Shown: positions 13,050-39,474 of the stretch, one piece after another
How positions within the stretch are numbered: the first letter of the stretch is position 1
Layout of the letters: each line of letters begins with the position of its first letter
NCBI GenBank assembly: GCA_017525875.1
Contig: JAFXSG010000045.1
Location: 12,276 to 76,275 of the forward strand
DNA from: Clostridia bacterium
Lineage (GTDB): Bacteria; Bacillota; Clostridia; Christensenellales; CAG-138
Length of the DNA stretch: 64,000 nt
Direction of reading: 5' to 3'
The notes under the pieces: model-generated
The model's database searches: none
Seen by the model: only the letters and a program-made list of their open reading frames with translations
What the model was told of the DNA's origin: nothing
Translations under genes and position numbers: made by a program

Positions 13050-14983
<1,934 letters not shown>

Positions 14984-15861: not shown

Positions 15862-17220
15862 TTACCGCTCCCATTGAAATTGTGGAATGCTGCGGGAACG
15901 GTTTGCCTCCCGCACCTTCTTTTCGATATGCGGGATATCCTCGCGCAGAGCGGAGATCAGCTTGAGCTCGCCTCTCAGCTCCCGTAAGGATTTGTTAATG
16001 GATACCAGCCCGTCGTAGACCTCGGTCTTTTCCTTGTTGAGGGCTTCTATATCCCTTCCCTCCAGCAAACGCCGTGCTTCATCGAGCTGAGCGCGCTCAT
16101 CGGTGTAATCCTCGGGAACGCCCGCGAGGTATTCCGCCTTGGCAAGAGCGCCGTAAAGCTTCCTGTTCCGCTTCTTTTTGCTGTTCAGGATGATACGGGA
16201 TTTCGTAAGCTGTTCTATCTCCGCATTGACGATGGTCTCTCGCTCGTCGAGCGCGTCGAAATCGTTGATGCCGTATTTCTCAAGGAATTCGCCCTGCCTC
16301 TTCAGCTGTTCGAATTTCAGCACCTCCTTGGGATCGACATAGAAATCCGTCTGCTTTCCCTGACCGATGATCCCGAGCACGTACATCCAGTGATACACGA
16401 GCGCGATAAAGCCGGTGGGCTTTACGAGAGGCTTGTACGGGACGTATTCCCTCTGCTTGATGATGACCTCCTTGCTCGTATCCGTCAGGGCGTCGTCGAT
16501 GTAGCTTTCGAGCTCGTCCTCTGTGAGCGCCTTGCCGCACTGACGCATGCGGAAGCCGTTCTTCGCCCCGGCGGGACGGAACGTGGGATACTTGCTGTTG
16601 TGCTCAACTTCGTATCCCCGTGCCTCCATCATGCGGTAGATATCGCCCACGCTGCAGGCGGTGGAAAGCACCTCGTCGGTGTCTAGATCCATCTGCTCCC
16701 GCAGCGTGAGCATACCGTTCTTACGCGCTCTCCACTCGGCATATGAGAGCGCATGGGGCTTGGGCTCCTCGATGACCGACAGCCCGTGCTCGCGGCAAAG
16801 CCTGTCCGACGTTCCGCGCACTTGAACATAATACGATTCCGCCGTGCTGTGGTATTTCTTGCCCGTGAGAGCGTTCACGGAATTGACCGCCATATGGTTA
16901 TGGATATGATCCTTATCTATATGCGTGGCGAGGACTACCTCGTAACCGGGGAAATGCTCCTGCACGAACTGAGCTCCGATCTCATGCGCCTCCTCGGGAG
17001 AGACCTCGCCGGGATCGAACGCCTGTATGCCGTGGAACATCTCTATCCCGCCCTCCTTGCCCCAACGGGCTTTCGTTTCGAGCATCTGCCTTGCGGCTGT
17101 ATCCAGCTCGCAGTGAAAGCAGCTGACAAGGGTATGCTCCTCTGTCTTCATGGGATTGGCGACGTAGCTGATCAGCTGATCCGGCCGCATGTGTCTTGAG
17201 AGTACCTTCGTTACCGCCAT
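15862..17220 (-). CDS. relaxase/mobilisation nuclease (MobA/VirD2-type)
   Basis: His-triad HIDKDHIHNHMAVNSV and N-terminus MAVTKV... Start at 17220, preceded by GGGAGG; it overlaps the mobC stop. Confidence 0.85.
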   Translation of the reverse strand: MAVTKVLSRHMRPDQLISYVANPMKTEEHTLVSCFHCELDTAARQMLETKARWGKEGGIEMFHGIQAFDPGEVSPEEAHEIGAQFVQEHFPGYEVVLATHIDKDHIHNHMAVNSVNALTGKKYHSTAESYYVQVRGTSDRLCREHGLSVIEEPKPHALSYAEWRARKNGMLTLREQMDLDTDEVLSTACSVGDIYRMMEARGYEVEHNSKYPTFRPAGAKNGFRMRQCGKALTEDELESYIDDALTDTSKEVIIKQREYVPYKPLVKPTGFIALVYHWMYVLGIIGQGKQTDFYVDPKEVLKFEQLKRQGEFLEKYGINDFDALDERETIVNAEIEQLTKSRIILNSKKKRNRKLYGALAKAEYLAGVPEDYTDERAQLDEARRLLEGRDIEALNKEKTEVYDGLVSINKSLRELRGELKLISALREDIPHIEKKVREANRSRSIPQFQWER

Positions 17221-17531
17221 ACTGCCTCCCATTCCCGCATGAGGGCGAGTATCCGCTCAAAGGCGATACGGGCCATACGGAAGTCGTCGCTTTCGACAAA
17301 GCCCTCCGCGTTCGCTCTGTGCACGAGCTGATTGAAGTTGACGCCTATCCGGTCGATCGAGGTGCGGAGCTCGGTGAAGTCGGCGCTGGGCCGTTCCTTC
17401 ACGGGCTTGCTCATGATGAGCTTACGGATGAGGTTTGCTTTTGAAAGGCCGGTGCTTTCGCACAATCTTTCCAGCTCGCGGTTTTCTTCGTCGCTCATCC
17501 ACAGGTGATATTGATGCGCTGTTTTTTTCAT
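17211..17531 (-). CDS. mobC: MobC-type relaxosome accessory protein
   Basis: MKKTAHQYHLWMSDEENRELERLCESTGLSKANLIRKLIM...VNFNQLVHRAN is a ribbon-helix-helix MobC pattern. Start at 17531, preceded by GGAGGT. Confidence 0.8.
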   Translation of the reverse strand: MKKTAHQYHLWMSDEENRELERLCESTGLSKANLIRKLIMSKPVKERPSADFTELRTSIDRIGVNFNQLVHRANAEGFVESDDFRMARIAFERILALMREWEAVWR

Positions 17532-17887: not shown

Positions 17888-18880
17888 TTAGACTTCGAGC
17901 GACGTCTGCTCCGTGCTTTGCTCGGGCGGGAGCCAGTACCAGCCGTCTTCTCGCTTCACGGACTTGATACCGAGATCTTTCTTGGCCGAATCGACGGTGC
18001 GCTTGCTGACTTCCTGGAACTTCATAAAGGTGTAGACCTTGTCCGCCGGGATATCGATCCCGTTCGCAAACAGGCCTGTCAGCATCTCCTTCACGAATCC
18101 GAGCTTCGTCTGCGTGAACTCGGCTTTAGTGCTGTCCAAGAGCTCGTCCGCCGTCATATCGCTCGTGCCTTCAAAGAACATGCGGTTGTCCTCTACGGTG
18201 AATACGAGCGTGGGGCTCAGCGCCGTAAGATTGCTCTTGACCGGAGCGAGGAACACGTTTGCTTCCTTCGGGTTCGGCTTTGCGAGCAGCAGAACGCTCC
18301 GCGCCGCCCCGGTGATGTCCATGGAGCCAAGACCCCGGCTTATCGCCTTCATGCCCTTCATCTTGTTCAGATGCTCGATAAGGACGATCGCGCAGCCTGT
18401 GCGCTCCGCAATGACCTTCAAGGTGTGGAACTGGGGACGAACTACGTTCGCGCGGTACATGTCCACGCCCGCTCCGAGATACGCCTGCAACGGATCGAGG
18501 ATGAACAGCTTCGCATTAGTCTCGCGGATGGCCGCCTCGATTCGCTCGTCCGAGAACGAAAGCGGATCCTTGGTCTCGTCGATGACAAACACCCTGCTGC
18601 AGTCCGCGCTATTCGCTTCAAGACGAGGCTTTATGGTGTCGCCCAAGCCGTCCTCAGCCGTCTGGTAGATGCAGTTGGCGGGATCGCGGAACGCATCATC
18701 CGGTTCGCCGGGGAGGGGCCTGCCTTGCGTGAGCCTTGATATGACGTGCATCATGAGCATGGTCTTCCCCTCGCCCGGGTTGCCGCGGACGATGGTCAGC
18801 TTGCCCGCTGGTATGTAACCCGGCCACAGCCACGAGACCTCTTCGGTCACAACGTCGTTCATGTTGATAAGATCGTTCAT
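17888..18880 (-). CDS. RepA-like P-loop ATPase (AAA_25-type) of mobile elements
   Basis: VSWLWPGYIPAGKLTIVRGNPGEGKTMLMMHV Walker A and LFILDPLQAY Walker B. Start at MNDLINM (18880), preceded by GGAAAGGAGGAA. Confidence 0.75.
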   Translation of the reverse strand: MNDLINMNDVVTEEVSWLWPGYIPAGKLTIVRGNPGEGKTMLMMHVISRLTQGRPLPGEPDDAFRDPANCIYQTAEDGLGDTIKPRLEANSADCSRVFVIDETKDPLSFSDERIEAAIRETNAKLFILDPLQAYLGAGVDMYRANVVRPQFHTLKVIAERTGCAIVLIEHLNKMKGMKAISRGLGSMDITGAARSVLLLAKPNPKEANVFLAPVKSNLTALSPTLVFTVEDNRMFFEGTSDMTADELLDSTKAEFTQTKLGFVKEMLTGLFANGIDIPADKVYTFMKFQEVSKRTVDSAKKDLGIKSVKREDGWYWLPPEQSTEQTSLEV

Positions 18881-19942
18881 GTGAGTTTCCTCCTTTCCTG
18901 AGTGATACACCGCTCCGTAACGATCAAAATTGGGAGCAGTATTCATATTCCGAATGCGCCGGGAACCGATAAAAGTTGATACAGTTATCAGATAACGGCG
19001 GCAATGAAACCAATACTGGGGGTAGTTATCAAATAACGGAAACCTCGCTTTTGAAAAGTGGTACTAGTTTCAATTAGTGAAAACCGGCGATTGAGGGAAT
19101 GATACCAATCAAAGCGGACACCTAATGTCCGGTTTGAAGAATCCGGGAAGATATATTTCTTCGACCTTCTTCCTTTCGCAGGAGATAATACAATTTGAAG
19201 GTGCAGCCTAATTGCACGTTCAGAAAACATCGAACAATATATATGAAGTATTGTTTTATTCATCCATCTCGTTCCTCCGTCTATAAGCTTAATTCTCAAA
19301 CTGCTCATCTAATGGGCAGTTACAAGACTTTTGCCCGCATCATACACTTTTTTTGCTCCAAAATCGGCAACCTACGGGGGTTACCAAAATTTCGGCCCCG
19401 AATCGCAATATGTAGATTTAGCCATGTAATCAACCACTATATGTTGATTTTTAGGCCCAAAATGTGATAAAAAACGTGCAACCCCCGTGGGTTACATATA
19501 TTATTGAATATATTTTCGTTATTCGGCGCTATTTCTCCGTTTGGAATCGATATTATGTTTTAAGGTTCGCTTGCATTGATGACTTTCAGATCGATAATAG
19601 CCCCGTTGCCCCACCCTTAACAGGACTTTGAAAGTCCTATTTCTTTTGCTTTGATTTGCTCGGCTTTTCCCATTCTTCGATCCGGTTGATCTCTGAATTT
19701 GTGCTTGAAAACAGCCTTTGAAAGTCCGGCTCCAAATAAATATATTTGTTTCGTGGGTCGCCCCTGATTGCGAGTATAAGAAAAAAGGGTGCAACCTAAT
19801 TGCACGCTTTTCCCCGTTCAAAATGATATATTTGATTTATGCTGACTTTTAGTGAATAGAACGCCTCTCTAAAATATCATTTAAGAAGAAAGGAACAATA
19901 TCAAGTTGTTCATGTAAGAAACAACTTCGGATTGGAGGAACC

Positions 19943-20467
19943 ATGATGAATCTTATCACAGCAAAAAAAGTAAAACCCATCATTATTGTACTAATCATCT
20001 TGATTGTCGCAATAATGCTTATTTCGGGCAGCATCGTCACATCGATTGTGCTGCATCAAAATAGTGTGCATAAGCTTTCTGAAAAGATGCGCGATGAGGG
20101 CCCCTGGAACCCGGAGCCTTCAATATGGGCTTCAAAAGATAACGACGCATTCCTCATTTGCGATAATCAGAATGCAGATAGGATCTGCACGATAACTGCC
20201 TTTTTCCGAATCGGAGATAAATGGGCGGCGTTTACTATGAATCAGAGAAACGGCAGGAAAGAGCTTGTATTTGAATCAGAGGTCGCAGAGTTTTCGGAAC
20301 CGGTTTTTTCCTGTTCTTATGACTTTAAGGACGACTCACTCACTTTCTGGAGGTTTAAAAAAGTGGAAGATGATGCTCTGCTTCCCGATGCTGTTGCCCT
20401 TACTTTAACTCGATTGGGCAATTATGAAGATGCTAAGGAATCTCTTCCTCAGGATCTTTGCTTTTAA
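19943..20467 (+). CDS. hypothetical membrane-anchored protein
   Basis: 174 aa with N-terminal TM PIIIVLIILIVAIMLISGSIV and RBS GGAGGAACC. Confidence 0.5.
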   Translation: MMNLITAKKVKPIIIVLIILIVAIMLISGSIVTSIVLHQNSVHKLSEKMRDEGPWNPEPSIWASKDNDAFLICDNQNADRICTITAFFRIGDKWAAFTMNQRNGRKELVFESEVAEFSEPVFSCSYDFKDDSLTFWRFKKVEDDALLPDAVALTLTRLGNYEDAKESLPQDLCF

Positions 20468-22200: not shown

Positions 22201-22680
22201 ATGACTCAAAAAAAGACCGATTGGTTTTTCAACAGCATAACGGCTATGCAGGGCGATATGTTCGCCTATGCTTTCAGTATCACAAAATCGCGCGAAGACG
22301 CTGAGGACGCCGTCCATAACGCGGTCATAAAAGCGTTTAACAATCTGCCAAAGCTCAGGAACAGAGCGAAGTTCAGACCATGGCTGTTCAAAATACTGCG
22401 AAACGAATGCTTACTTTCGATGCGTTTCAGAAGGCGTTTTTCGCCGTTCACGGAGGATATCCCTGCTGAGCAAAAGGACTTGGAGACAAGTATCGATTTA
22501 AGCATAGCCGTCAGCGGTTTAAGCGAGGAGCTTCGCGAGATCGTGGTTCTGTATTACAAGATCGGCTATTCGACCGGCGAGATCGCCCAAATTCTCGATA
22601 TCCCTCGCGGTACAGTGATGAGCAGGCTAGCCCGCGCGAGGGAACTAATAGGATTTAGTCTTAAAGGAGAAAAACAATGA
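22201..22680 (+). CDS. ECF-type RNA polymerase sigma factor
   Basis: Region 2 (AEDAVHNAVIKAF...FRPWLFKILRNE) and region 4 (LREIVVLYYKIGYSTGEIAQILDIPRGTVMSRLARAR). Confidence 0.85.
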   Translation: MTQKKTDWFFNSITAMQGDMFAYAFSITKSREDAEDAVHNAVIKAFNNLPKLRNRAKFRPWLFKILRNECLLSMRFRRRFSPFTEDIPAEQKDLETSIDLSIAVSGLSEELREIVVLYYKIGYSTGEIAQILDIPRGTVMSRLARARELIGFSLKGEKQ

Positions 22681-24116
22681 CTTCAATAGATACGAAAATC
22701 AAGGAACAGATCGATGCGTTCGTTCCGCCTGTACCCGAAAGCTATACGCAAATGATCGAAAGCACTGTTGCGGAGCTCAGGGAGAGGACTCTCTCAGCTT
22801 CAAAACGCGGTAACAGTTTCGGAAGATACATTATTGCATTCGCGGCGATCATCACGGCTCTGCTTATTACATCGGTGGCCGTCTTCGGCGCTCGTCCCGC
22901 GCTTGCGGCGGAAGTGCCCGGTGTAAGTAACATCGTATATGCCGTATCTCCGCAAAAAGCTGTGAACGATTTGGGCCGTGAAAGGATCGAAGCCCTGCTG
23001 AATGATACATTCCGTTCCCTCGCTTTCTGCGATTATGAAGCGGCTTCGCCTTGTTTTCGCGCAGACAGCATTTCGGATCGTAGCAATTACCTTTCCGCGG
23101 CATATCTTAACTATCTTGTAGCGTTCGGCGACTTTTTCCCGAATGGTGCTAACGCCGCAAGAATCGAGATCAAGGATCTGCAGGCGGAACAGAAGGCTTT
23201 CAGATACACAGCTCATGTAACACTGAATCTTATTTCGAGGGACGGCACGAAGAAGAATACCGAGGATTGTACTGTTCAATTATGGGAAAACACAAAGGGC
23301 TTATACATAGAGAGTATTGGATTTGACTCTGCAGACTTTGAGTCGTATGTCACCATGTATGAAGGAATCTTCGGATCCGTCGCTTCCCATGGGGCAAGCC
23401 TTGATCTGATTCCGCTCGACACAGCTTATCTAAGCTATGTGCATGTTATTTCCGAACAGGAAGGCGCAAGACAAAGAGTGGATCGTCTGGAAAGCATGCG
23501 GAGAGAGCTTGACTCAGTCAACGCATCCTCCGATGAAAAGGCAATCAGAACAGCACTCATCAAGGCGGAGCTTGGAAAAGCAGAGGCGGAGATCACTCCC
23601 GAAGTAATCTCCGTTGAACAGCTCGCAACGGAGCTTATGTACCGCTACTGGCTTGGCGGAAAGACGGGAGAGGTTTTCGATTTCTCCGATATTATGGAGA
23701 GGAACGAAGAGACCGATCTGTTTTTCTGGGATGCAATTCTCGAAGCGGAGAAAGTTAAGCTGGGTGCGCTCAGACCTTTGGAATCGGTTGAATTGGGCAC
23801 GGCCCAGATCCTTGAAATTATAGAGGATACAGATGGGCTTATCGAAGCACGTTTCTATGTCCACACCGAGATCACCGATGGAATCAGTCAGGGCGTCGGC
23901 GAAGAGATCATACTGACTATCCGAAAGGATGACGCAGGGCTTATGATCGTCGGTTTTGACAGGGACATCGGAGACGGATTTTATACCTACAGCCTAAAGC
24001 CTCTTGCAAGACAGTATAAGGCTGCCGGCTATTCGTGGCAGGAAGCAGGACAGATGGCATACGACGTTCTGCACGAGCAGATCATCCGCGATGCTGAATG
24101 GCTGTCCAATCATTGA
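22677..24116 (+). CDS. putative anti-sigma factor / membrane protein with extracytoplasmic domain
   Basis: Overlaps the sigma-gene stop. Short cytoplasmic N-terminus, one TM (YIIAFAAIITALLITSVAVF) and a large external domain. Confidence 0.55.
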   Translation: MTSIDTKIKEQIDAFVPPVPESYTQMIESTVAELRERTLSASKRGNSFGRYIIAFAAIITALLITSVAVFGARPALAAEVPGVSNIVYAVSPQKAVNDLGRERIEALLNDTFRSLAFCDYEAASPCFRADSISDRSNYLSAAYLNYLVAFGDFFPNGANAARIEIKDLQAEQKAFRYTAHVTLNLISRDGTKKNTEDCTVQLWENTKGLYIESIGFDSADFESYVTMYEGIFGSVASHGASLDLIPLDTAYLSYVHVISEQEGARQRVDRLESMRRELDSVNASSDEKAIRTALIKAELGKAEAEITPEVISVEQLATELMYRYWLGGKTGEVFDFSDIMERNEETDLFFWDAILEAEKVKLGALRPLESVELGTAQILEIIEDTDGLIEARFYVHTEITDGISQGVGEEIILTIRKDDAGLMIVGFDRDIGDGFYTYSLKPLARQYKAAGYSWQEAGQMAYDVLHEQIIRDAEWLSNH

Positions 24117-28602: not shown

Positions 28603-30387
28603 CTAATTGCTGTCTCCCGCAGTAAAGCTGAAGCTGTATCTCCGTATCGCCAAAAGCGTGAGCACGAACAGCACGAGTATCAGCCCTCCGAAGATCAGAT
28701 TCGACTGTGCGAGCGTTGGTAAAAGGTCATAGCCGAAGTTATGCATATGATACGTCGCGTGGTTTAATGGAGAGATCCAGCCCATTATCACGTTCGCGCG
28801 GTACTGCATGTAATCCGGCAGCTTGAGCACGGTCATGAGTGTCTGCGGGTTAAGGATATAGCCGTATAGCGAGAACGCCAGCACCGCCGCCATGCCCGTC
28901 GCGCGGCTTTTGAGTATATTGAAAAGCAGCAGTATAGAGCCGACGAGCAGCGAATAAAGCAGCATTTCAACGAATATCGCCCCTGTTGCGGCGGCGGGCG
29001 TGCTCATTTCGAGCGTCTTTACGAACACGGGCAGCAGTATGCTTTTTCCCGTGCCGGAGTACCCAAGCAGCGCCGCCGTCTCCGACCACATATTGCCGGG
29101 GAAGCTGTTCTGCATGCAGATGAGCATCGTGACTGCCAGCACGAAGCAGCAGTAGATCACGGTGACGAGCGCCATATAGAGCATCTGCCCGAGGAGCCAC
29201 GTCCGCCGCTTCATGCGGATGAGGTAATACGGTACGCCCGCACTCAGGTTCGGCATATCGGAGAACAAAAGAAGGAGCATCAGGCTGATGAGCAGTATGC
29301 TGTTGCTGTCCCCGAAGGTCCAGACGAACGGCTCGAACATCTGCGTTGTCGTCCGATAGGTGTACGCGAAGGTCGTCACCTTGTTGGAGAGCAGGAAGCA
29401 GAGTATCGCGGTGAAAGCGAATGTGAGTATGATCCTCGGCCCCGTGCGCCATGAGCTGAAATTACACCTCGCGGCGGTGAGCACTTCGGAGAAGTCCCCG
29501 AGTATGCCCTTTCGGGGCATGCGGAGCCGGTTCCGTTCAGTGAGCTTTATGGGCTTGTCGCTGTAATGCGCGCCGCTTCTGTCTGCATTTCCGTCGATCT
29601 TCGCCGCGATCGCAAAGTATGCGGCGAGCATTGCCGCAAGCGCAGTCAGAGAAGATATCACGGCAGGTGAGCCGCCCCAATCGCCCGAAGCCGTGATATA
29701 GTTCTTCGGGTTCAGCACGAGCACGTCCCGGAAGTACCGCTCGGCTATTATGACGAGCACGTAGTAGCAGATGAACGGCGATATGTACGCGAGAAACTTG
29801 TTCATGCCCGCTGTGCCGGCTAAAAGCGCAAGCGCGCTCCACAGCGCGGCGGCGGGAAGACAGCGGAGCATAATTTCAAGATTACTTCCGAAAAGCTCTG
29901 CCGCCGCTCTCTGCTCGTCCGCAAGCTCGAAAGCCTTCTGGAGGGGCATGTGGTAGGCGTAGATGCCGAAATAGACGAGCCCAAGCCCGACGGTGACGGC
30001 CAGCACGGAGGCCAAAGCGCAAGAGCAAAGCTTCGATACGGCATAACTCCTTTTCGATACGAGCGGGAGATACTGCTTTATATAGCCGCTCTTCACGTCC
30101 TCGATAACTGCGGTCGAGAAGGGCAGAGCCGCTGCTATAGGCAGAACGGCAAGAAGCATATCGTTCGAAAGCGCTTTCGCCATTACCGTGTGCGCGAATA
30201 AGGAATCGAGCGCGCCTCCGTGCTGCCGGAAATATCGCATCGTCTCAATGTATGTGGAATCGGTCAGCACCGCCGTGAGCACGGCTCCGGCTATTAGCAC
30301 TGCCGCAGCGAGCCAACGGAAGGAGAATACGCTCCGGCGAATATCGGTAATAAACTGCCGCAAGATAATGCACCCCTTCGGCATCAA
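28603..30387 (-). CDS. polytopic membrane protein, putative ABC permease
   Basis: 594 aa with about 12 hydrophobic segments. It sits between a lipoprotein gene and the ABC ATPase; its start overlaps the upstream stop. Confidence 0.55.
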   Translation of the reverse strand: MMPKGCIILRQFITDIRRSVFSFRWLAAAVLIAGAVLTAVLTDSTYIETMRYFRQHGGALDSLFAHTVMAKALSNDMLLAVLPIAAALPFSTAVIEDVKSGYIKQYLPLVSKRSYAVSKLCSCALASVLAVTVGLGLVYFGIYAYHMPLQKAFELADEQRAAAELFGSNLEIMLRCLPAAALWSALALLAGTAGMNKFLAYISPFICYYVLVIIAERYFRDVLVLNPKNYITASGDWGGSPAVISSLTALAAMLAAYFAIAAKIDGNADRSGAHYSDKPIKLTERNRLRMPRKGILGDFSEVLTAARCNFSSWRTGPRIILTFAFTAILCFLLSNKVTTFAYTYRTTTQMFEPFVWTFGDSNSILLISLMLLLLFSDMPNLSAGVPYYLIRMKRRTWLLGQMLYMALVTVIYCCFVLAVTMLICMQNSFPGNMWSETAALLGYSGTGKSILLPVFVKTLEMSTPAAATGAIFVEMLLYSLLVGSILLLFNILKSRATGMAAVLAFSLYGYILNPQTLMTVLKLPDYMQYRANVIMGWISPLNHATYHMHNFGYDLLPTLAQSNLIFGGLILVLFVLTLLAIRRYSFSFTAGDSN

Positions 30388-31883
30388 TAATAATCCTCGC
30401 CCCAGCCGTTTGAGGATCTGCCCGATATCCTCGAGCCGTCTATCGCGTTGATTATCATAAATCTACAAGCGTCGAAAAGCTCGTCGGTGTAACCGGTTAC
30501 ATATGGATAGAGATCGCCGTCCACTATCTCCTCGCCGCAGAACATCCATGCGGGCACCACGGTATAGCCGCCCCCGACCGACTGTATGGCGCAATAAACG
30601 AGCTGGATCCTTTTGATCCTTAACTCCACCGTCCCCTTCTTTGCGCCTTCGCCCTTGAAGTTTTCAATGGTGTATTCGACCTTTGCCTGACGGCAGAAGG
30701 ATTCATATGCCTCATCGAAGCTCAGCATGGAAACATTCTCGTTTTCGACCGTTCCGAGCTCCCAGCTGTTCTTCATAAAGGCATAGCTGACGCCGTCGTT
30801 CGTCACGACCACAGTCAGGTGTGCGTCATTCTGAACGCGGGCGTACTCGTTCACGATGCCCGACTTCACGATGGGCACGCCGTTTATCGCCTTGCAGAAA
30901 TAGAAACTATATCCCAAGGGCTTTTCGCCGGGCTCGGAGCTGTACCATTCGTGTGCCTTCCCGGGCAGCTCTGTGCTGTTGTAGTGCGGCGTGACCCTGT
31001 AAAGTACGTAATCATCGAAGCCCGCTTTTTTAACAAAGTCCTCGGCGGTCTCGCGGGCTTCATCGACAGTGCAGTTGATCTGCGGCCATGCCCAGTTATC
31101 GGAATCTCCCCAGTACTTATCCCCGTATGTGTAAGTCAGAATGGAAGTATGGACCGAATGGTCATATTGATCCATATAATACTCTTCAACAATCCTGATC
31201 CTTTTTCCGTTCGAGTCGGTACCAAACGCTATCGAAAGTCGCTTGTACGTGTCGCTGCCCCAATCGACCGGGTTGAAATACGAAGGCGGTTGGAGCATGA
31301 AATCCGCGGGAATTGGATCGGTGCTCTGGGGGTTCTCTCTCGCTTCGTTTATGAGCCTCTGCGTTTGGGGTATGATATTGTTTTCATAATCCGCTTTCAC
31401 CTCAGCCGCTGTTTTCTCGGCTTCCTCCTGTGACAATCCCTCATCGATATAATGCTTCACAAGCTTATCCCAATCGGCGATGAAAGCGCGGTACTGCTCA
31501 AGCCTTGCCTCAAGCTCCTCGATCGAGACCGCGGCTCTCTTCTGATAAAACTCCACGTCGGGATGTATCCCCTCGGCGATTCTCCTCCCGAAACCGTCGG
31601 CTATCGGCGCAGCCTCGGCACGATAGACGGGGAATACGTTTGTTTCGGGCTTGACTATTTCCGCGCCGACGTTCACCGTCACGTTGGTATCGAGGCAAAC
31701 GAAGCTGTCTGTCTTGTGATCGGGATCCTCGCGGACAACGTCGGTCGGCAGAGGTGTGGCGTTGATGGCTTCATTCATCTGCTCGTCGTTGCCGGAGATC
31801 ACCGGAGGCTTTTCCGGCGTCGGCTGACAGGCCGAGAGGCACAGCATAACGGCGCAAATGAATATGATAACAAACTTTTTCAT
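30384..31883 (-). CDS. lipoprotein, function unknown
   Basis: MKKFVIIFICAVMLCLSAC lipobox, followed by a 480-aa soluble domain. Confidence 0.6.
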   Translation of the reverse strand: MKKFVIIFICAVMLCLSACQPTPEKPPVISGNDEQMNEAINATPLPTDVVREDPDHKTDSFVCLDTNVTVNVGAEIVKPETNVFPVYRAEAAPIADGFGRRIAEGIHPDVEFYQKRAAVSIEELEARLEQYRAFIADWDKLVKHYIDEGLSQEEAEKTAAEVKADYENNIIPQTQRLINEARENPQSTDPIPADFMLQPPSYFNPVDWGSDTYKRLSIAFGTDSNGKRIRIVEEYYMDQYDHSVHTSILTYTYGDKYWGDSDNWAWPQINCTVDEARETAEDFVKKAGFDDYVLYRVTPHYNSTELPGKAHEWYSSEPGEKPLGYSFYFCKAINGVPIVKSGIVNEYARVQNDAHLTVVVTNDGVSYAFMKNSWELGTVENENVSMLSFDEAYESFCRQAKVEYTIENFKGEGAKKGTVELRIKRIQLVYCAIQSVGGGYTVVPAWMFCGEEIVDGDLYPYVTGYTDELFDACRFMIINAIDGSRISGRSSNGWGEDYY

Positions 31884-31964: not shown

Positions 31965-33290
31965 TTAATCGGTTATGCTTATGACTTCTCCCGTTTCAGC
32001 GTTGACCTGAGCCGTCCACGAGGCGATTGAATAGTTAAATTCTATTGTATAAACGGTGATCATTCTGTCCCCGCTGCCCGTTGTTCCGATGCGTATGGTC
32101 AGCGCTTCGATATCGGAAGGCGAGGCTCCGATCCCTTTGAGCACGGCGTTTACGGCAACGTTTTCCGAAACGAGCCTTGTGCGGTGGCTCGGCGTGAGCC
32201 CGTAATACGAGCTCCAAACGGGACACTTGAAGATCTCCGCGCCGTTTCCGTCGGCGTTCACGCGGACATCGTATTTCATTTCGCTGTCGCGGAACTCCAC
32301 CCAGTAGACGAACTCTCCGTTTTCGATACAGAGATCGGAAATCAGCTCGAAGGTGGTATTGGGTTCTCGGGAATTGACGCGGTAGGCGTCGACGGCGGGA
32401 GTGACGTATTTGCCGCTGACGGAAACAAGGAACGCATCCTTATAGCCCGCCGCATCGAGCGCCTTGGCGACGGCCTCTGCGGAGGATATGATGCTTGTCT
32501 TGGGCGTGCCGATGTGCATCACGTCCGCGGCCTTGGGATCGAGGAGCATATTGAGTTCCGAAATGTTCAGCATAACGAGCTCGTCGAAGCTGTAATAAGG
32601 GATGGACTCCGCAACCTTATTGATGAGCATCGCCTTTCCGAGAGTAATCCCGTACCTGTCCGCAAGCTTTTCAAGCTCCGCGTCGTGCACGGCTGTCATT
32701 CCAATTACCGCTCCGCCTCCCTGTGGGATCATGGCTTCGTCTATGACGGAGACGAGCCTGCGCGTCAGCTCCTCGGCCTTCGCTTCATCCTTATCGTCGA
32801 CCGTGACGAGCACGGAATTCGCAAACTCGTTCAGGTAGCTGTTCCGCACCATCGAGCCGATCAGCGCGTTTACGGCAAGATCGAGCGGCACGCCCGAAAA
32901 ATCCATTGAACCGACGACCTTTTCGGCGTCCCCGTTGAGAGGCACGACGGCGACGACGCGCTCATTCCGATTGAGCTTGATCTCAATGGACGGATTCACG
33001 TCGAGGGATACGGTATTGCTGACGGTCTTTTGCAGGAGCTTTGTCCCGACCGTATTTATGGCTCCGCCGAGGAATACAAGCGCCAGCGCAGCGGCGGCAT
33101 AGGCGTACCAAGGGATACGCCTATGCTTCGGAACGGAGCGGGTGTTATTTGCAGTTCGCTTTGCTCCTTCGGCGTCGGTCAGGCATTTATCAATAATTTG
33201 TTCATCGATATCGGCTATCGCGTCGAACATTCTGTGCTCATCCATTTTATGATCCTTTGCCTTTGCTTTGCAAAGGCCTCCTTTCTTCAT
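31965..33290 (-). CDS. single-pass membrane protein, anti-sigma-factor-like
   Basis: Short N-terminal cytoplasmic segment, TM YAYAAAALALVFLGGAI and an external domain. It lies directly downstream of the sigma-region-4 protein. The start is uncertain (ATG at 33290, 33245 or 33230). Confidence 0.5.
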   Translation of the reverse strand: MKKGGLCKAKAKDHKMDEHRMFDAIADIDEQIIDKCLTDAEGAKRTANNTRSVPKHRRIPWYAYAAAALALVFLGGAINTVGTKLLQKTVSNTVSLDVNPSIEIKLNRNERVVAVVPLNGDAEKVVGSMDFSGVPLDLAVNALIGSMVRNSYLNEFANSVLVTVDDKDEAKAEELTRRLVSVIDEAMIPQGGGAVIGMTAVHDAELEKLADRYGITLGKAMLINKVAESIPYYSFDELVMLNISELNMLLDPKAADVMHIGTPKTSIISSAEAVAKALDAAGYKDAFLVSVSGKYVTPAVDAYRVNSREPNTTFELISDLCIENGEFVYWVEFRDSEMKYDVRVNADGNGAEIFKCPVWSSYYGLTPSHRTRLVSENVAVNAVLKGIGASPSDIEALTIRIGTTGSGDRMITVYTIEFNYSIASWTAQVNAETGEVISITD

Positions 33291-33371
33291 GATATTTGCC
33301 GGTTTCGCGGCAGCGAAATTGACGCGCCGTCTGCGGCAAAGGCAAATTCATCAAGTTTGAAAATCCCATTT

Positions 33372-33824
33372 TCAAACTTTTTCCTCCCTCAAGTATTTTT
33401 TGAGCTTTTGGACCGTTCTGGAAAGTCTGCTTCGTACTCTGTTTTCGCTTATGCCGTAGTATTCGGCGATCTGGGCGTTCGAGTTCAAAAGGTAGTATCT
33501 TCGGATGAACATCCCCGCGTCCGGCTGCGGGAGCCCCTCGGCAAAGCGACCGATCAACCGGGACAGCCGCTCGCGCGGGATCTCGCACCCCGGTGGAACG
33601 CAGGCTTCAAGCTCCTCGAAAACGCAATCCTCACGCCGTATCAGAGATTCCACGGGGACGGACAGCGCATCGGCGATTTGCAGGAAAGTTCCGTAGTTCG
33701 GACGGCGCAGGCCGTTCTCCCATTTGGAAATCAGCTCGCGCGAAACAAAGAGCTTATCCGCAAGCTCCTGCTGAGTGATATTCGCTTTTACCCTCGCGTC
33801 CGCTATTTTTCTGCCGAAGTCCAA
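33372..33824 (-). CDS. XRE-type HTH fused to a sigma-70 region 4-like domain
   Basis: TTG start after GGAGG. N-terminus ANITQQELADKLFVSRELISKWENG (XRE HTH); C-terminus MFIRRYYLLNSNAQIAEYYGISENRVRSRLSRTVQKLKKYL (ECF region 4 pattern). No region 2 is present. Confidence 0.7.
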   Translation of the reverse strand: MDFGRKIADARVKANITQQELADKLFVSRELISKWENGLRRPNYGTFLQIADALSVPVESLIRREDCVFEELEACVPPGCEIPRERLSRLIGRFAEGLPQPDAGMFIRRYYLLNSNAQIAEYYGISENRVRSRLSRTVQKLKKYLREEKV

Positions 33825-34000
33825 CTCAGCGCCTCCATCCGCTTTTCTTTACAATGGAATTGTATCATACTCCGGCGGATAATACACGGTACAATTCGCA
33901 CGGAAATAATGACAAAAGAAATAAGGGCTTTGCGAGTTAGCTTAATGCTAATGCAACTGCCCTTAATCTATTATTGGCCAAGTTCCAATGTGGAGCTTTT

Positions 34001-35374
34001 TCAAAAATCATATTTCCTTGTGCAATTGATGCAGAAACCGTTTCCGGCATAGTTGCTTTCCGTTAGCGGATCGCCGCAGTACGGACAATAACCATATTCC
34101 CCGGAATCCGAAAGCCTGTCTGAATAGGAGAGTTCTTTGATTTTTCCTCTTGCTATCTTTGCTGCCTCAAAACTGTCATCATCTTCAAAATCATAAAAGG
34201 ATTCTACCTGCCGTTCGACTGTAACGAAAATTTTGCCTTCAAAAACATGATCCCTTCCCTCCGAGCAAATTACCTCTTTGGTATCATCGTCACGTCCCCA
34301 ATAATCATAAGATACACCTTCCATCCTAACCATGAATATGAACTCATAGATAACCAAATATTCTTCCCGATCAACACGGTGAGCCGAAACAAACTCGTGA
34401 TAGGTAATGTCACATTCATCTATTCCCTCGGTTCCAATGTGGGCAGAATCTTGAATTATATAGTCTTCGGAATTATACATCAGATCGACTACCACTTTAT
34501 CAAATACCCGATCCGCTATTCTGTCACAATAATCTGCATCAGTCATTTTCAGAGCAAGTTCTACTGTATCAGTTTTCGCAATTGAGAACGATAATGAAAC
34601 ATCAGAAAAGAAATCGCTGCATTTCATCGGAACAATCTGCTGCCCTGTTTTATTGAACTCGTCCATTAGTTGTGAATGGAAACATGAGCCGTTTCCGTTT
34701 ATCTCCCACCAATCCTCCTTTGCATCGTCGGTAACAAAAATAACGTCTATTCTTTCAGCTCTAGCATATCTCAAGATTTCTTTCCAGATAAATAAGTCGC
34801 TATATTTGCGCACTCCATCCTTTTTAGCATCTTTATAACCTGGGGGAGTCTGTTTTTTATATCTCTTCTCTCCTTCATCACACCACATGTAAATCTCATC
34901 GTGTGTGAGTGGTTGCATTACCGATAAGGAAGTAACGAGTTGGTTAAGGCGATCGGTACCGTTCCAATAATGCTGTGTCAAATCAATGGAGGTATGATCT
35001 TCATAATAGTTTTCCAGCACTTTCAAAACAGCATCCATTTTTTCACTCAAAGAACTTTCCAGTAAATCCACATCGGGATACTGGAGCCTTGTAAGGTTTG
35101 CGCAGGAACCAAGTATTTTGGTTTTTGCATTATTAATTTGCTTTTTCGGCTCGTCTACTGTTGTTAGAAAGCGTTTTCCCATTTCCGCGTAAGCAGATCG
35201 GTAGTGACGTGAATACTCTAAAAATACCGTTGCAGGAAGGACTACATGTTCTGCTACGGCTTTTATGCATTCCAATGCGAACTCCGAAAACTCTGGTGAG
35301 TACCTATATGTATTCAGCAGAACATTAGTGTCAAGCACAACTATGTGAGTTTCCAGCAGGTCTTTAATTGACAT
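34001..35374 (-). CDS. PIN-like domain protein with C-terminal zinc ribbon (third gene of the Gabija-like operon)
   Basis: 457 aa. N-terminus VVLDTNVLLNTY, then PPGYKDAKKDG...SDLFIWKEIL...DVIFVTDDAKEDWWE (PIN-like/DUF4935-type pattern). C-terminus CPYCG...CINC. Its start lies 21 nt after the helicase stop. Confidence 0.7.
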   Translation of the reverse strand: MSIKDLLETHIVVLDTNVLLNTYRYSPEFSEFALECIKAVAEHVVLPATVFLEYSRHYRSAYAEMGKRFLTTVDEPKKQINNAKTKILGSCANLTRLQYPDVDLLESSLSEKMDAVLKVLENYYEDHTSIDLTQHYWNGTDRLNQLVTSLSVMQPLTHDEIYMWCDEGEKRYKKQTPPGYKDAKKDGVRKYSDLFIWKEILRYARAERIDVIFVTDDAKEDWWEINGNGSCFHSQLMDEFNKTGQQIVPMKCSDFFSDVSLSFSIAKTDTVELALKMTDADYCDRIADRVFDKVVVDLMYNSEDYIIQDSAHIGTEGIDECDITYHEFVSAHRVDREEYLVIYEFIFMVRMEGVSYDYWGRDDDTKEVICSEGRDHVFEGKIFVTVERQVESFYDFEDDDSFEAAKIARGKIKELSYSDRLSDSGEYGYCPYCGDPLTESNYAGNGFCINCTRKYDF

Positions 35375-35395
35375 TTTTTCAGTTCCTTTCTTGTT

Positions 35396-36538
35396 TTAAT
35401 CAGAGATGATATATTTTAGCGCACGAATTGATGTGTTTCCACATGCAATCATAGTTTCCTCGTAGCCGCTCAATGCCTTAGGTAATTTCTTAAAAGCAAT
35501 AGCAATACTGTATTTGGGTCTAGTGACAGCAACATAGTATTTTTCGGGAGAGGAAAGGACTGTTCCTTTCATTACGAAATCCGTAAGCGGGCCATTTGGG
35601 ACAATTAAAACTCGTTCATAGGTTTCACCCTTGCAAGCCCCGAAGTTCACAGCAAATCGTCCATAGTTATCAAATGTTTTATCATACCGCAAAACTTGAG
35701 GGGAGTAAGCAGCGAGATAAGCAGATACATCAGAGACTGCAATAAGGAAAACACCATCATGGTCTGTTTGGTCTGTCATAATAGTAGTTATGGGCTCTCC
35801 AACAGGGAATATGCTGTTTGCAAAGCAACATATTTGTTGGTTGAATCTTCGACTCGAAAGGTTTCTTTCAACTATGACAGAACCATTCTTTTCCATCTCA
35901 GAGAAGAACTGCCAAATGTTTTTCCCAGTCTTTCCTTTGTTTTTCTTTGTGTTATGTGTACTAAATGTTGCCTGCTTGTTATCTCCACAAAACACAACTC
36001 CAATTGAGGAGTTGATAAGCAAACGGATAATTTCTAAATCATCTCCAACCATATCCTGTATTTCATCAAAGAAAATGGTGGAATAGACCATCTCCAATCG
36101 GGTAATAACCTTACCGTTACTTAGTGAATTCAGCAAGCACGCCAAGGATGCTCCTTCGTTAGAACGCACGTTTTTAGAATCAGTAAGATACCTTCTGATG
36201 GTACCAGCCTTTGCATAATTAATGTAGCCGTATGACTGTGAATAATCAAATCCCTTAACTCCCCCAACTCTTTGTGTTAAGTATCTTTGATATGGTTTTA
36301 TCAATTCTGACAGCATGAAGACATACCATGTTTTCACAATAACAAGGGGATGCAAAACCCCGTCATTTTGCAGCCGTATTTCGTTTCGTACAGATTCAGC
36401 ACCACGGTTTGTATAAGTTGTTATTAGAACTCTGTTACCAGACCTTGCCTGTTCCAGTGCACTATTACAGATATCATATGTCTTGCCTGAGCCCGCGGCC
36501 GACATTTTTGCAATGTTATTCAAAGAAATTGATGGCAT
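35396..36538 (-). CDS. gajB: short UvrD-like SF1 helicase (GajB-like)
   Basis: Motif I AAGSGKT, Ia TYTNRGA, II IFFDEIQD, III CGDNKQATF, V ACKGETYERVLIV, VI YYVAVTRPK. Start at 36538 overlaps gajA by 23 nt; ATG 36505 is the alternative. Confidence 0.7.
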   Translation of the reverse strand: MPSISLNNIAKMSAAGSGKTYDICNSALEQARSGNRVLITTYTNRGAESVRNEIRLQNDGVLHPLVIVKTWYVFMLSELIKPYQRYLTQRVGGVKGFDYSQSYGYINYAKAGTIRRYLTDSKNVRSNEGASLACLLNSLSNGKVITRLEMVYSTIFFDEIQDMVGDDLEIIRLLINSSIGVVFCGDNKQATFSTHNTKKNKGKTGKNIWQFFSEMEKNGSVIVERNLSSRRFNQQICCFANSIFPVGEPITTIMTDQTDHDGVFLIAVSDVSAYLAAYSPQVLRYDKTFDNYGRFAVNFGACKGETYERVLIVPNGPLTDFVMKGTVLSSPEKYYVAVTRPKYSIAIAFKKLPKALSGYEETMIACGNTSIRALKYIISD

Positions 36539-38132
36539 CCTGAATGTACTGGGGGTAGCAAATAGAGCTTTCAGACTCAAAAACTCTGAATGCCCATTCA
36601 ACCTTATTCCCTTTCATAAAATCAAGAATTCCTGTATAGTCTCTGGACTCAAGAGACCCGTCTTTGGATATTATGGATTTGAACGCCATATGAGGTTGAT
36701 CACCGTCGCAGTTTACAGCAAGCACGCTCGGCTCAATAGTGTTAAGATGCTCGTTCTCTTCGTAGTAGAAGTGCAAATTGTCGTGTTCGATGTACTCAGC
36801 ATACTTTTTTCGTATATTTTTGTCGATATCTCCGTCGTTATCGGTGACAATCACAACGTCCTTGCCGATTAAATTTGCTATATCTGCAAAACGTTTGAAT
36901 GCTAAAGAGCCTACCGAAATGATATCGATCCCATCATCGAAAGGAAGACGCCCATATTTATCCTTATAAGCGCGTTGAATAATCAGATCATCGGTTGGCC
37001 CTTCTACTAAAACAACTCTTGTCGCCAAAGCAAAGCGCAAGGTATCATAACCAGGCAGTTTTGTAAAGTATCGCTTTGTTTCTGCTGGCAAATCACCATA
37101 TGATTGCACCTGTCCATCGCGAACAAGAATAACATTACCCAAATCGAGTTTATTGGCGATATAACTGCTATGGGTAGAAATAAAAACCTGCTTATCAGAA
37201 GATTGTACAACATGTTTTACAAGACGAGTCATGTTTGAGAAAGAGAGATTGTTTTCTGGCTCTTCCATAAGGACTACATTAGCTTGATTATCCGCATTTC
37301 TAAGAGCAAGTTCTATTTTGATGCTGTTTTGCGTTCCAAAACCAATTTGCTCGAAAGGTATTTCATCGACTACAATGGACATTTGTTTCTTCCATGCATT
37401 GACATCGTCTTCCCGCAAGTCAAGAGATACAGTTCGGCCTTTTATTATCTTGCTTGTTTTTACAGCATCATTAAGCTTTTGAACCACATCATTTTCTCGG
37501 AATTGTCTTCTGCTTGCATTATATGCCACAGCAAGATTGGTCAGTTCGTCTTCGGTTAAATTATCAGAAATGCTGTCTGAAACAAAATGATCGACAATTC
37601 CAGCGTATTCTTTTCGTGTTGTATCAATGGTTATACATTTAAAGGGGGATAACCGGAAAGAGACGGTGGCTCCGCTAAAATAGTGGTAAGTGACACCATA
37701 AAGCTCGACCGGAATGTCTTTGACTTTTCTTTCAGACAACATTTGCCTATATGCCTCTGTGTTTGAGTCGAGAATATCAACTACCACACGAATGCCAGCG
37801 GCATCTTCGGATAATTCGTTTTCAGTTCCCTGGTAAATGGGATCGCCATCAAAGTACGCTTCAATAATAATTCGTGGGGGCGCTGGGTTAAGCCCGAGTG
37901 CCATATTAGCAATGAATTCATCACGTATATCTCTGTTGAATAGATTTGCTTTAAGCTGACGATCAAAAGCTATTCCGTTCAGTTTCCCAGTAGTTGCAAT
38001 TGAAAGCGCATCAAGGAGCGTACTCTTCCCGGCATCATTATCACCGACAAAGATGTTAATCTTTGGGTTTAGTTTGATTACGCTATCCTTAAGCAGTTTA
38101 TAGTTCTTAACAACAAGTTTTTTTATGGTCAT
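36516..38132 (-). CDS. gajA: OLD-family ATP-dependent endonuclease (ABC-type ATPase plus TOPRIM; GajA-like)
   Basis: N-terminus LVVKNYKLL...IFVGDNDAGKSTLLDAL, LMEEPENNLS, and C-terminal TOPRIM VLVEGPTDDLI...VVIVTDNDGD. Start MTIKKL at 38132, preceded by GGGAGG. Confidence 0.8.
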   Translation of the reverse strand: MTIKKLVVKNYKLLKDSVIKLNPKINIFVGDNDAGKSTLLDALSIATTGKLNGIAFDRQLKANLFNRDIRDEFIANMALGLNPAPPRIIIEAYFDGDPIYQGTENELSEDAAGIRVVVDILDSNTEAYRQMLSERKVKDIPVELYGVTYHYFSGATVSFRLSPFKCITIDTTRKEYAGIVDHFVSDSISDNLTEDELTNLAVAYNASRRQFRENDVVQKLNDAVKTSKIIKGRTVSLDLREDDVNAWKKQMSIVVDEIPFEQIGFGTQNSIKIELALRNADNQANVVLMEEPENNLSFSNMTRLVKHVVQSSDKQVFISTHSSYIANKLDLGNVILVRDGQVQSYGDLPAETKRYFTKLPGYDTLRFALATRVVLVEGPTDDLIIQRAYKDKYGRLPFDDGIDIISVGSLAFKRFADIANLIGKDVVIVTDNDGDIDKNIRKKYAEYIEHDNLHFYYEENEHLNTIEPSVLAVNCDGDQPHMAFKSIISKDGSLESRDYTGILDFMKGNKVEWAFRVFESESSICYPQYIQDAINFFE

Positions 38133-38229
38133 TTGCTCTGCCTCCCTTTTGCCTATTCCTAAGGACAATCAGAATTATGCCGCCTTGATCCAAAGCGAGA
38201 TTGAAACAGCTTGGTTCTATGCTCCAAAT

Positions 38230-38258
38230 AATATAGCATTTTCTCCCTTCGTTTTCAA
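38230..38258 (-). promoter_or_regulatory. sigma-A type promoter of the defence operon
   Basis: Minus strand reads TTGAAA, 17 bp, TGcTATATT (extended -10), about 90 nt upstream of the gajA start. Confidence 0.5.
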
Positions 38259-38285
38259 GACAACGAAAGATGTTTGTAGGCAGAA

Positions 38286-38319
38286 TAGCAAAAAGCGATG
38301 GAGCTTGAAGTCCATCGCT
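38286..38319 (-). terminator. rho-independent terminator after the tnpV-like gene
   Basis: Stem agcgatgga/tccatcgct, followed on the minus strand by TTTTTGCTATT. Confidence 0.65.
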
Positions 38320-38355
38320 TACATAAGTGGATAATTCTTTTCGTCAAGTCAGTTG

Positions 38356-38706
38356 CTACTTGAGCACTATTTCTCGGATAACCTGTCCTTCAGCTCTCAC
38401 TCGGCAGGAGTTCATCGCGTGTATCCAGCCGAGCTGATTCCATGCTTTGAGGTCTTCGGTGACGCCTTCGGCTTTGGCGAGCTGGGATGTAATGAGGTCG
38501 ATCTGTTCCATAGCTTGTTGGTTAATGTCGATAAGGTGCTGTGTCAGGGTGTTCTCCATCAGCATCAGCGCAAAGGTGTCGGGCTGATGCTCCCTCAAAA
38601 ACTTCTTCCGCATCCGTCCAAATCGACCAATATCACCGGTCGGCTGGGGAGGGAGCGTGAGGTCGGGATAGTAATAGTCTCCGTGCTTGGTGTAAGTGAT
38701 TTCCAT
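38356..38706 (-). CDS. tnpV: TnpV-like transposon protein
   Basis: MEITYTKHGDYYYPDLTLP...GRFGRMRKKFLREH...LIDINQQAMEQ...KAWNQLGWIHAMN matches my memory of the TnpV family of Tn4451-type elements. Strong RBS AGGAGG. Confidence 0.7.
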   Translation of the reverse strand: MEITYTKHGDYYYPDLTLPPQPTGDIGRFGRMRKKFLREHQPDTFALMLMENTLTQHLIDINQQAMEQIDLITSQLAKAEGVTEDLKAWNQLGWIHAMNSCRVRAEGQVIREIVLK

Positions 38707-39358: not shown

Positions 39359-39420
39359 AAAGGCAAAGAAAAAACAGCCCGTATGGCTGCTTTTCTTTGC
39401 TGGCTGCCGAACCTGGATTC
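39359..39420. repeat. intact 62-bp reference copy (terminator hairpin plus last 20 nt of tRNA-Gln)
   Basis: It equals 12961-12985 joined to 39197-39233. Confidence 0.9.
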
Positions 39421-39474
39421 GAACCAGGAATGAACGAGTCAGAGTCGTTAGTGTTACCGTTACACCATTCGGCA
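39401..39474 (-). tRNA. tRNA-Gln (anticodon CUG)
   Basis: Hand-folded cloverleaf: acceptor TGCCGAA/TTCGGCA, anticodon arm AACGA-CTCTGAC-TCGTT, T arm CCTGG-TTCGAAT-CCAGG, encoded CCA. 74 nt. Confidence 0.85.

Follow-up and report, generated by a model that had tools for sequence, protein, structure and literature searches.

A probable Gabija pair and a PIN/zinc-ribbon gene in one cargo block of a Clostridia mobilisable element

We analysed a window of 64,000 nucleotides (nt) from a Clostridia bacterium (contig JAFXSG010000045.1), and within it an AT-rich block of ~4.3 kb that encodes three proteins from one strand: GajA, an OLD-type ATPase with a fused TOPRIM nuclease, GajB, a UvrD-like superfamily 1 (SF1) helicase, and a PIN_8 family protein with a C-terminal zinc ribbon, here called the PIN protein and its gene the PIN gene. 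All positions are those of the window unless a survey locus is named. An integrative mobilisable element carries the block as cargo; the host is a gut or rumen bacterium of Clostridia type. Gabija, a two-gene system by definition (gajA and gajB), ranks among the most common defence systems. A first-pass annotation of this DNA had read the PIN gene as a third Gabija component. Judged from the distribution of these genes in other genomes, the locus is probably an ordinary two-gene Gabija with an independent, stand-alone PIN_8 gene, stacked in one cargo operon.

The AT-rich block and its three proteins

The block stands out by base composition, as the first-pass annotation had noted. Its guanine-plus-cytosine (GC) content is 40%, compared with ~55% for the surrounding DNA; along the sequence the values are 0.38-0.42 across about 33,900-38,300 and 0.52-0.59 in the flanks on both sides. 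The open reading frames (ORFs) follow one another in the order gajA, gajB, PIN gene (Table 1). The start of gajB overlaps the stop of gajA by 23 nt, and a gap of 21 nt separates gajB from the PIN gene. The ORF coordinates, the overlap and the gap all agree with those reported previously.

The top promoter-like match of the region, TTGAAA-17-TATATT with an upstream TG (10/12), lies ahead of gajA, where a near-consensus promoter had been proposed. Promoter-like sites occur in this region at chance level (13 observed vs 11.3 expected), and we therefore take the site as a consensus match that does not prove function. A weak internal promoter-like site (TGGAAA-17-TAAAAT, 9/12) lies at 35413-35441 in the 3' end of gajB, 39 nt before the start codon of the PIN gene; it could drive the PIN gene separately, and is statistically the same as chance. 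On the upstream side of the block, the hairpin at 38293-38320 is terminator-like and would terminate the transcript of the upstream gene tnpV, insulating the operon from upstream transcription. A strict terminator scan found no terminator-like site in the interval between gajB and the PIN gene. The same scan missed the hairpin 3' of the PIN gene because its loop is long; a 111-nt fold of this hairpin has -27.2 kcal/mol (z = -2.07). With one promoter-like site, no internal terminator and one 3' hairpin, the earlier description of a single three-gene unit is correct, and the three tightly spaced genes are probably co-transcribed.

Table 1 Features of the AT-rich block and of its carrier element, in window positions.
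Feature	Positions	Strand	Description
gajA	36516-38132	-	ORF, 538 amino acids (aa) counted from ATG; AAAGGGAGG just before the ATG
gajB	35396-36538	-	ORF, 380 aa; UvrD-like SF1 helicase
PIN gene	34001-35374	-	ORF, 457 aa; PIN_8 family protein
PIN_8 nuclease domain	34691-35344	-	residues 11-228
Zinc ribbon CPYC...CINC	34022-34087	-	residues 430-451, C-terminal
Promoter-like site TTGAAA-17-TG-n-TATATT	38230-38258	-	98 nt upstream of the gajA ATG
Terminator-like hairpin	38293-38320	-	10-bp stem with 5 GC pairs, then TTTTGCTATTC
Terminator-like hairpin and U-tract	about 33914-33965	-	3' of the PIN gene; stem AAGGGC...GCCCUU, then AUUUCUUUU
Mobilisable element	13050-39474	.	approximate extent and ends
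Large serine recombinase	13050-14798		element backbone
ParB-like protein	14999-15835		element backbone
Relaxase, MobA/VirD2-type	15862-17232		element backbone
AAA_25 protein	17888-18946		element backbone
RsgI-like anti-sigma gene with PepSY domain	31965-33290		follows the HTH/sigma gene
Helix-turn-helix (HTH, HTH_3) and sigma-70 region 4 protein	33372-33824	-	first backbone gene downstream of the cargo
tnpV	38356-38706	-	PF14198 TnpV, 7e-37; backbone gene upstream of the cargo
tRNA-Gln	39401-39474		beside the far end of the element

GajA matches the PADLOC GajA model PDLC00102 (1.3e-164) over residues 1-536 of 538, and the Pfam families AAA_15 (2e-24) and OLD-like_TOPRIM (9e-14). Its Walker A motif G-x-x-G-K and the motifs EEPEN, VEGPTD and TDND (DxD) are invariant in 19 homologues. 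GajB matches the PADLOC GajB model PDLC00148 (4.3e-92) and Pfam UvrD-helicase (1e-9). The best PDB fold match of its AlphaFold2 (AF2) model (predicted local distance difference test (pLDDT) 86) is 8tk1_F, a chain of the Gabija AB complex (E 8e-13); Rep and UvrD rank behind it, and 8iud and 8sm3_B match as well. These profile and fold matches support the original assignment of the OLD/UvrD pair to Gabija. The top-scoring PADLOC GajB models are only 365-369 positions long, which indicates that the short-GajB subfamily is already catalogued by PADLOC.

Gabija is defined by a UvrD/PcrA/Rep-like SF1 helicase gene directly beside gajA, in a conserved pairing (PMC10568477). We searched with a profile of 22 short-GajB homologues and obtained 80 metagenome loci (35-100% identity), in all of which GajA is encoded immediately upstream of GajB, usually in overlapping frames. 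The window's locus has an OLD-type GajA and an adjacent UvrD-like helicase with this conserved pairing, and it is like the Gabija of Bacillus cereus VD045 (PDB 8SM3, 8TK1) in both domain architectures, the gajA-gajB order, the overlapping frames and the strictness of the pairing. Sequence homology to the validated B. cereus proteins is where the two differ: neither BcGajA nor BcGajB was reached at E ≤ 0.01 by phmmer or by profile hmmsearch against PDB sequences. Class 2 Toprim structures were likewise not reached at this threshold in single-sequence and profile searches; an extra Toprim helical insert sets class 2 OLD proteins apart from class 1 (PMC10568477). Among solved sequences, GajA is nearest to the OLD protein from Thermus scotoductus, a class 1 member (TsOLD 6p74, profile E 2e-15), and at 538 aa GajA is also of class 1 size. 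GajB has 380 aa compared to about 490 aa in B. cereus, a difference of about 110 aa. Kinship to the B. cereus proteins is visible at the fold level only, and for GajB, the one protein of the pair that was modelled.

The failure of the searches to reach the B. cereus proteins and the class 2 Toprim structures, the kinship of GajA to TsOLD and the two protein sizes would also fit a class 1-like OLD nuclease with a minimal helicase, that is, a separate type of system and not a true Gabija. We regard this as very improbable: the arrangement that defines Gabija is present in 80/80 loci, the full-length PADLOC models file both proteins as GajA and GajB, and the helicase model finds its best solved match in GajB of the Gabija complex. 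By its profile matches the pair is most likely Gabija, of the divergent short-GajB subfamily already in PADLOC. This subfamily may be a minimal Gabija without the class 2 Toprim insert. Its short GajB and class 1-like GajA are distant from all studied Gabija, and it could reveal how much of the GajA-GajB assembly can be done without.

The third protein was rightly described as PIN-like with a zinc ribbon. It matches PIN_8 (PF18476, 5.1e-48) over residues 11-228, corresponding to profile positions 1-218 of 227, with a score of 164 bits compared to a curated cutoff of 26; PIN_12 (PF16289) also matches (1e-12). The acidic residues D15, E53, D216, D217 and D221 are invariant in the alignment, and to judge from the sequence the PIN active site is intact. 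All 21 sequences compared, at 47-95% identity, keep the four cysteines C430, C433, C448 and C451. An AF2 model (pLDDT 83) consists of a PIN core bearing a long, family-specific helical insert, a domain of a helix and four strands, and the zinc ribbon; its alpha/beta core is confident. A fold search of the PDB returned nothing at E ≤ 1e-3, and matches of the C-terminal sheet to NTF2-like and CaMKII-hub folds are weak and uninformative. None of 5027 PADLOC models matches the protein at E ≤ 0.01, nor does any NCBIfam model. It matches the phage family phrog_9788 (7e-40, function unassigned), and its sole significant match in BFVD is a phage protein annotated as 'PIN like domain'.

Our literature search found no paper on PF18476, and PIN_8 and DUF4935 appeared only in a 2017 classification of PIN domains, which lists PIN_8 as being of unknown function and the related DUF4935 as usually monocistronic (Matelska et al. 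2017, PMC5499597). The PIN protein is a member of these PIN_8 / DUF4935 (PIN_12) groups of the VapC-like PIN superfamily, with the acidic residues and the long helical insert after the second strand. It resembles DUF4935 in having a C-terminal alpha/beta region without structural homologue and in being typically monocistronic; it differs from the PIN_8 group in that its subfamily has, in addition, a zinc ribbon of four invariant cysteines at the C-terminus. Proteins of the PIN_8 / alpha-beta / zinc-ribbon type form a large family (7,685 clusters at 50% identity for E ≤ 1e-3; 505 for E ≤ 1e-30) that is absent from PADLOC and NCBIfam and without assigned function.

Gene neighbourhoods of gajB and of the PIN gene

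Only one of the 80 GajB loci contains a PIN homologue. This locus (L081) is the same element, with a GajB 100% identical to that of the window. The nearest sister gajAB pairs, with a GajB identity of 74-75%, are without the PIN gene and have a 41-codon ORF or an opposite-strand HTH gene instead. The gene that follows gajB varies strongly between clades. Where a close same-strand gene lies 3' of gajB, it is often another defence gene, such as BrxC (33 nt), an SNF2 helicase (1 nt) or a RhuM-family gene (35 nt), indicating that close spacing of gajB to unrelated genes is common. These neighbours of short-type gajAB are located at L085:9920-13534 (the BREX gene brxC), L113:1500-4172 (SNF2 helicase) and L084:11185-12189 (RhuM-family gene). 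A separate case is a GajB clade of about 59% identity (L088, L091-L094), in which an ORF of 155-169 aa without a Pfam match lies directly 3' of gajB (e.g. L091:11101-11610), with a 28-nt overlap with gajB in four loci and a 39-nt gap in one. This ORF could be a lineage-specific third gene of another Gabija clade, or a neighbouring small defence gene.

The survey from the side of the PIN gene gave the same picture. A profile of 21 homologues yielded 80 genome loci with 10-kb flanks, and gajA-gajB lies directly upstream of the PIN gene in two of these (L001 and L002), both copies of the window's element. In the loci of the next-closest PIN homologues (L003-L016, 44-60% identity), GajA and GajB are absent within 10 kb. 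The proposal of a third Gabija component thus failed from both directions, at 1/80 and 2/80 and in the same element only, by the lack of synteny that the first-pass annotation had itself named as refuting; a PIN gene in synteny with an OLD/UvrD pair, in the three-gene layout, exists only in near-identical copies of one element.

Gabija was found 1-4 kb from the PIN gene in three further independent lineages (L019-21, L048 and L057), with differing order and spacing. The order in a Bacillus/Ureibacillus element is PIN gene, a gene for a protein of 244 aa, GajA (629 aa) and GajB (608 aa). Paeniglutamicibacter has gajAB of the short type 3.6 kb downstream of the PIN gene, and Aliiglaciecola has gajAB 2.6 kb upstream of it. 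These neighbourhoods combine PIN_8 with Gabija of differing subtypes in Bacilli, Actinomycetota and Gammaproteobacteria (L019:6311-12482, also L020 and L021; L048:9956-17633; L057:3448-11329). From their gene order, the scattered neighbourhoods look like co-residence in defence islands, with no fixed operon.

Most PIN homologues have no close partner. The upstream neighbour is on the opposite strand in 24 of the 57 non-redundant loci. In the 33 loci where it is on the same strand, with L001 not counted, the gaps have a median of 162 nt; 26 are longer than 100 nt and a single one measures at most 30 nt. The few neighbours tight to the PIN gene are unrelated and comprise a YhgA-like transposase, PTA, alcohol dehydrogenase, PurK, MreB, a protein kinase, DUF3800 and DUF4238. 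Mostly solitary and with an upstream intergenic region of its own, the PIN gene would normally be an autonomous gene.

The wider surroundings of the family are those of defence and of mobility. Within 3 kb of full-length homologues (32 loci), the recurring defence families are N6 and C5 methyltransferases, Eco57I, HsdS/HsdM, ResIII, AbiH, Shedu and AAA_15/AAA_21, and the recurring mobility families are type IV secretion system coupling proteins, resolvases and integrases. The neighbour scan was pooled into family tallies, not per-locus defence counts, so this context evidence is qualitative. PIN homologues are present on 65 plasmids and also in phages, and some are inserted singly among chromosomal housekeeping genes. 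In a Peptoniphilaceae conjugative element, the homologue has a fixed position between a DUF1706 gene and a small gene, by the conjugation genes. This distribution fits an autonomous, horizontally mobile family of a defence or mobile-element-conflict type and, as far as context can indicate, makes it a reasonable candidate for a single-gene defence nuclease.

Several individual loci of the family deserve mention. At L022:6032-7069, a PIN homologue is followed after 26 nt by a gene for a DUF4238 protein, so that PIN_8 is stacked with a small defence gene; DUF4238 domains are reported as single-gene defences in phage-satellite hotspots. In L013, the Butyrivibrio protein P0241 (844 aa) has a 380-aa N-terminal region fused to a complete PIN/zinc-ribbon protein. 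We considered P0241 as a GajB-PIN fusion and rejected it: the extension has the length of GajB (380 aa) but neither a Pfam match nor helicase motifs. L161 (NZ_CP042487.1) is a whole ColE1-type Klebsiella pneumoniae plasmid of 5,240 bp, in which the gene for a 574-aa PIN-like domain protein is the largest and follows two small hypothetical genes; this plasmid is a compact natural construct of the PIN family.

The window's element recurs with the same trio between tnpV and the HTH/sigma plus RsgI-like gene pair in L001, L002, L081 and L163, from rumen and gut assemblies. L001, L002 and L163 have the window's flanks, and L001 and L002 are colinear with it over window positions 17253-39194. Identity to L001 and L002 is 99.8% for gajB, about 99.1% for gajA, 95.5% for the PIN gene and 82-92% for the backbone. 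In L163 the proteins of the trio share 94.8%, 94.7% and 93.4% identity with those of the window. We profiled the identity between the window and L001/L002 over the segment 33381-39194, at 150-nt and then at base resolution. In the 150-nt profile, identity is 99-100% across gajAB, about 95% in the PIN gene and 80-92% in the backbone, as if gajAB were a cassette that was exchanged on its own and stopped with gajB. This was not upheld at base resolution, where the high-identity tract enters the 5' end of the PIN gene by about 120-170 nt, with the step at about 35,200-35,320. Since the tract reaches into the PIN gene and the trio has co-diverged in L163, the pattern suggests homologous exchange and not modular insertion. 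The identity steps indicate that related elements, with the trio already in place, have recently swapped the gajAB segment by homologous exchange. Such an exchange is silent on function, and we do not count it against a three-gene system. All five copies of the trio come from one lineage and are therefore counted as one evolutionary event.

Two stacked modules or a three-component system

A three-component reading would see here a lineage-specific tripartite Gabija, in which the PIN/zinc-ribbon protein was recruited by GajAB to act as an accessory, be it effector or sensor. The 21-nt spacing, the lack of a terminator in it, the single promoter and the single terminator are as expected for such a system, and the trio has been kept and has co-diverged to about 94% in L163. 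There are also precedents for changes of nuclease. Type II Gabija (Liu-DS1) is a two-gene system of a GajB homologue and the MazF-like GajC, with GajC in place of GajA (NAR 2026, PMC13069673); it is the only departure from the GajA plus GajB composition that we found in the literature. HEC-03 is a validated defence system of an ABC ATPase and a VapC-like PIN protein (bioRxiv 10.1101/2024.01.29.577857). Type II Gabija is like the window's locus in that a GajB-type helicase can pair with an RNase-fold effector, and HEC-03 in that an ABC-type ATPase gene stands beside a PIN nuclease gene in a defence context.

Both precedents differ from the window in what matters for this comparison. In contrast to type II Gabija, GajA is present and intact here, the extra gene encodes a PIN_8/zinc-ribbon protein and not a split MazF, and the linkage is not conserved. 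In contrast to HEC-03, the PIN protein here is without a PADLOC match, far larger and equipped with additional domains, and the ATPase beside it already comes with a fused TOPRIM nuclease and a helicase partner. As all nuclease motifs of GajA are kept, there is no absent effector for the PIN protein to substitute. The synteny of the trio is confined to one element lineage, amounting to a single evolutionary event; sister gajAB pairs at 74-75% identity do without the PIN gene; PIN homologues normally stand alone, more than 100 nt from the gene upstream; and gajB lies equally tight to unrelated defence genes elsewhere. We therefore consider a tripartite Gabija quite unlikely. A nascent tripartite form, in which GajAB would sense infection and license the PIN protein as an RNA-directed nuclease, parallel to the exchange that joined GajB with GajC, seems to us to have just as little chance; what favours it, the probable co-transcription and the co-divergence of the trio, comes from within this lineage. 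A new tripartite Gabija would matter if true; the data instead point to defence genes stacked in a cargo slot, with the lesson that tight spacing and a common promoter do not define a system. What is new at this locus is another member of a catalogued Gabija subfamily beside an orphan PIN_8-family gene.

Under the favoured reading, a two-gene Gabija and a stand-alone PIN_8 gene behind one promoter, the operon would work as a layered defence of two mechanistically different barriers and not as one machine. gajB would be translationally coupled to gajA via the 23-nt overlap. The GajA-GajB complex would be idle until infection and would then cut DNA at the TOPRIM site, as proposed by analogy with the B. 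cereus system (PMC10568477). The PIN gene would be expressed by read-through from the gajA promoter, possibly also from the weak internal promoter. Its product may be a self-contained, self-regulated nuclease, acting independently of GajAB at the protein level, in which binding of a trigger or a nucleic-acid substrate by the alpha/beta domain and the zinc ribbon would free the PIN active site. The PIN domain would then cut a nucleic acid that is probably RNA, most likely leading to growth arrest or to abortive infection. Its most likely role would be single-gene defence against phages or mobile elements, and the context typical of stand-alone defence genes makes the family a cheap candidate for phage challenge.

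Several observations weigh against this separation of the PIN gene from Gabija. All three genes have the same GC content, and a single promoter-like site and a single terminator-like hairpin frame them. The trio is stable within its element lineage and has co-diverged in L163, where each protein shows 93-95% identity to its counterpart in the window. GajB and ABC ATPases with RNase-like partners are known from type II Gabija (PMC13069673) and HEC-03 (bioRxiv 10.1101/2024.01.29.577857). Counting the window's element, Gabija occurs within 10 kb of PIN_8 genes in four independent lineages, a proximity that could hint at more than co-residence in islands. Finally, that GajAB would work without the PIN protein and that the PIN protein would defend alone is what we infer, with the role of the PIN protein drawn from its context.

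The PIN gene could also serve no defence at all, as a maintenance or addiction toxin of the element or as a nuclease of RNA processing or competition, with its place beside Gabija a matter of incidental packing. The frequency of homologues on conjugative elements, plasmids and phages, including the fixed position in Peptoniphilaceae, is in line with this, as are the membership of the domain in the VapC-like PIN group and the lack of a matching PADLOC model. The PIN protein shares the VapC-group fold and an intact acidic site with the toxins of VapBC modules. In contrast to VapBC, no antitoxin gene is adjacent or conserved, and the protein has 457 aa and extra domains compared to about 130 aa for VapC; a conserved small antitoxin-like partner was found neither at this locus nor in homologous loci. 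The family also occurs as single copies between chromosomal housekeeping genes, and its repeated occurrence beside restriction-modification, Shedu, AbiH, DUF4238 and Gabija genes is what defence genes usually show. This makes a non-defence role unlikely, although somewhat less so than a tripartite Gabija.

The carrier element and its other cargo

The placement of the block as cargo of a mobilisable element beside tnpV was borne out by the TnpV match (PF14198, 7e-37), the relaxase and the serine recombinase (Table 1). The element holds two putative sigma/anti-sigma pairs, at 22201-24116 and at 31965-33824. Beyond the RsgI-like gene of the latter pair, large lipoprotein and membrane genes occupy 28603-31883. 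A second AT-rich patch at 18988-20467 (GC 0.40-0.42) contains three small ORFs of 100-174 aa and may be a further cargo insertion.

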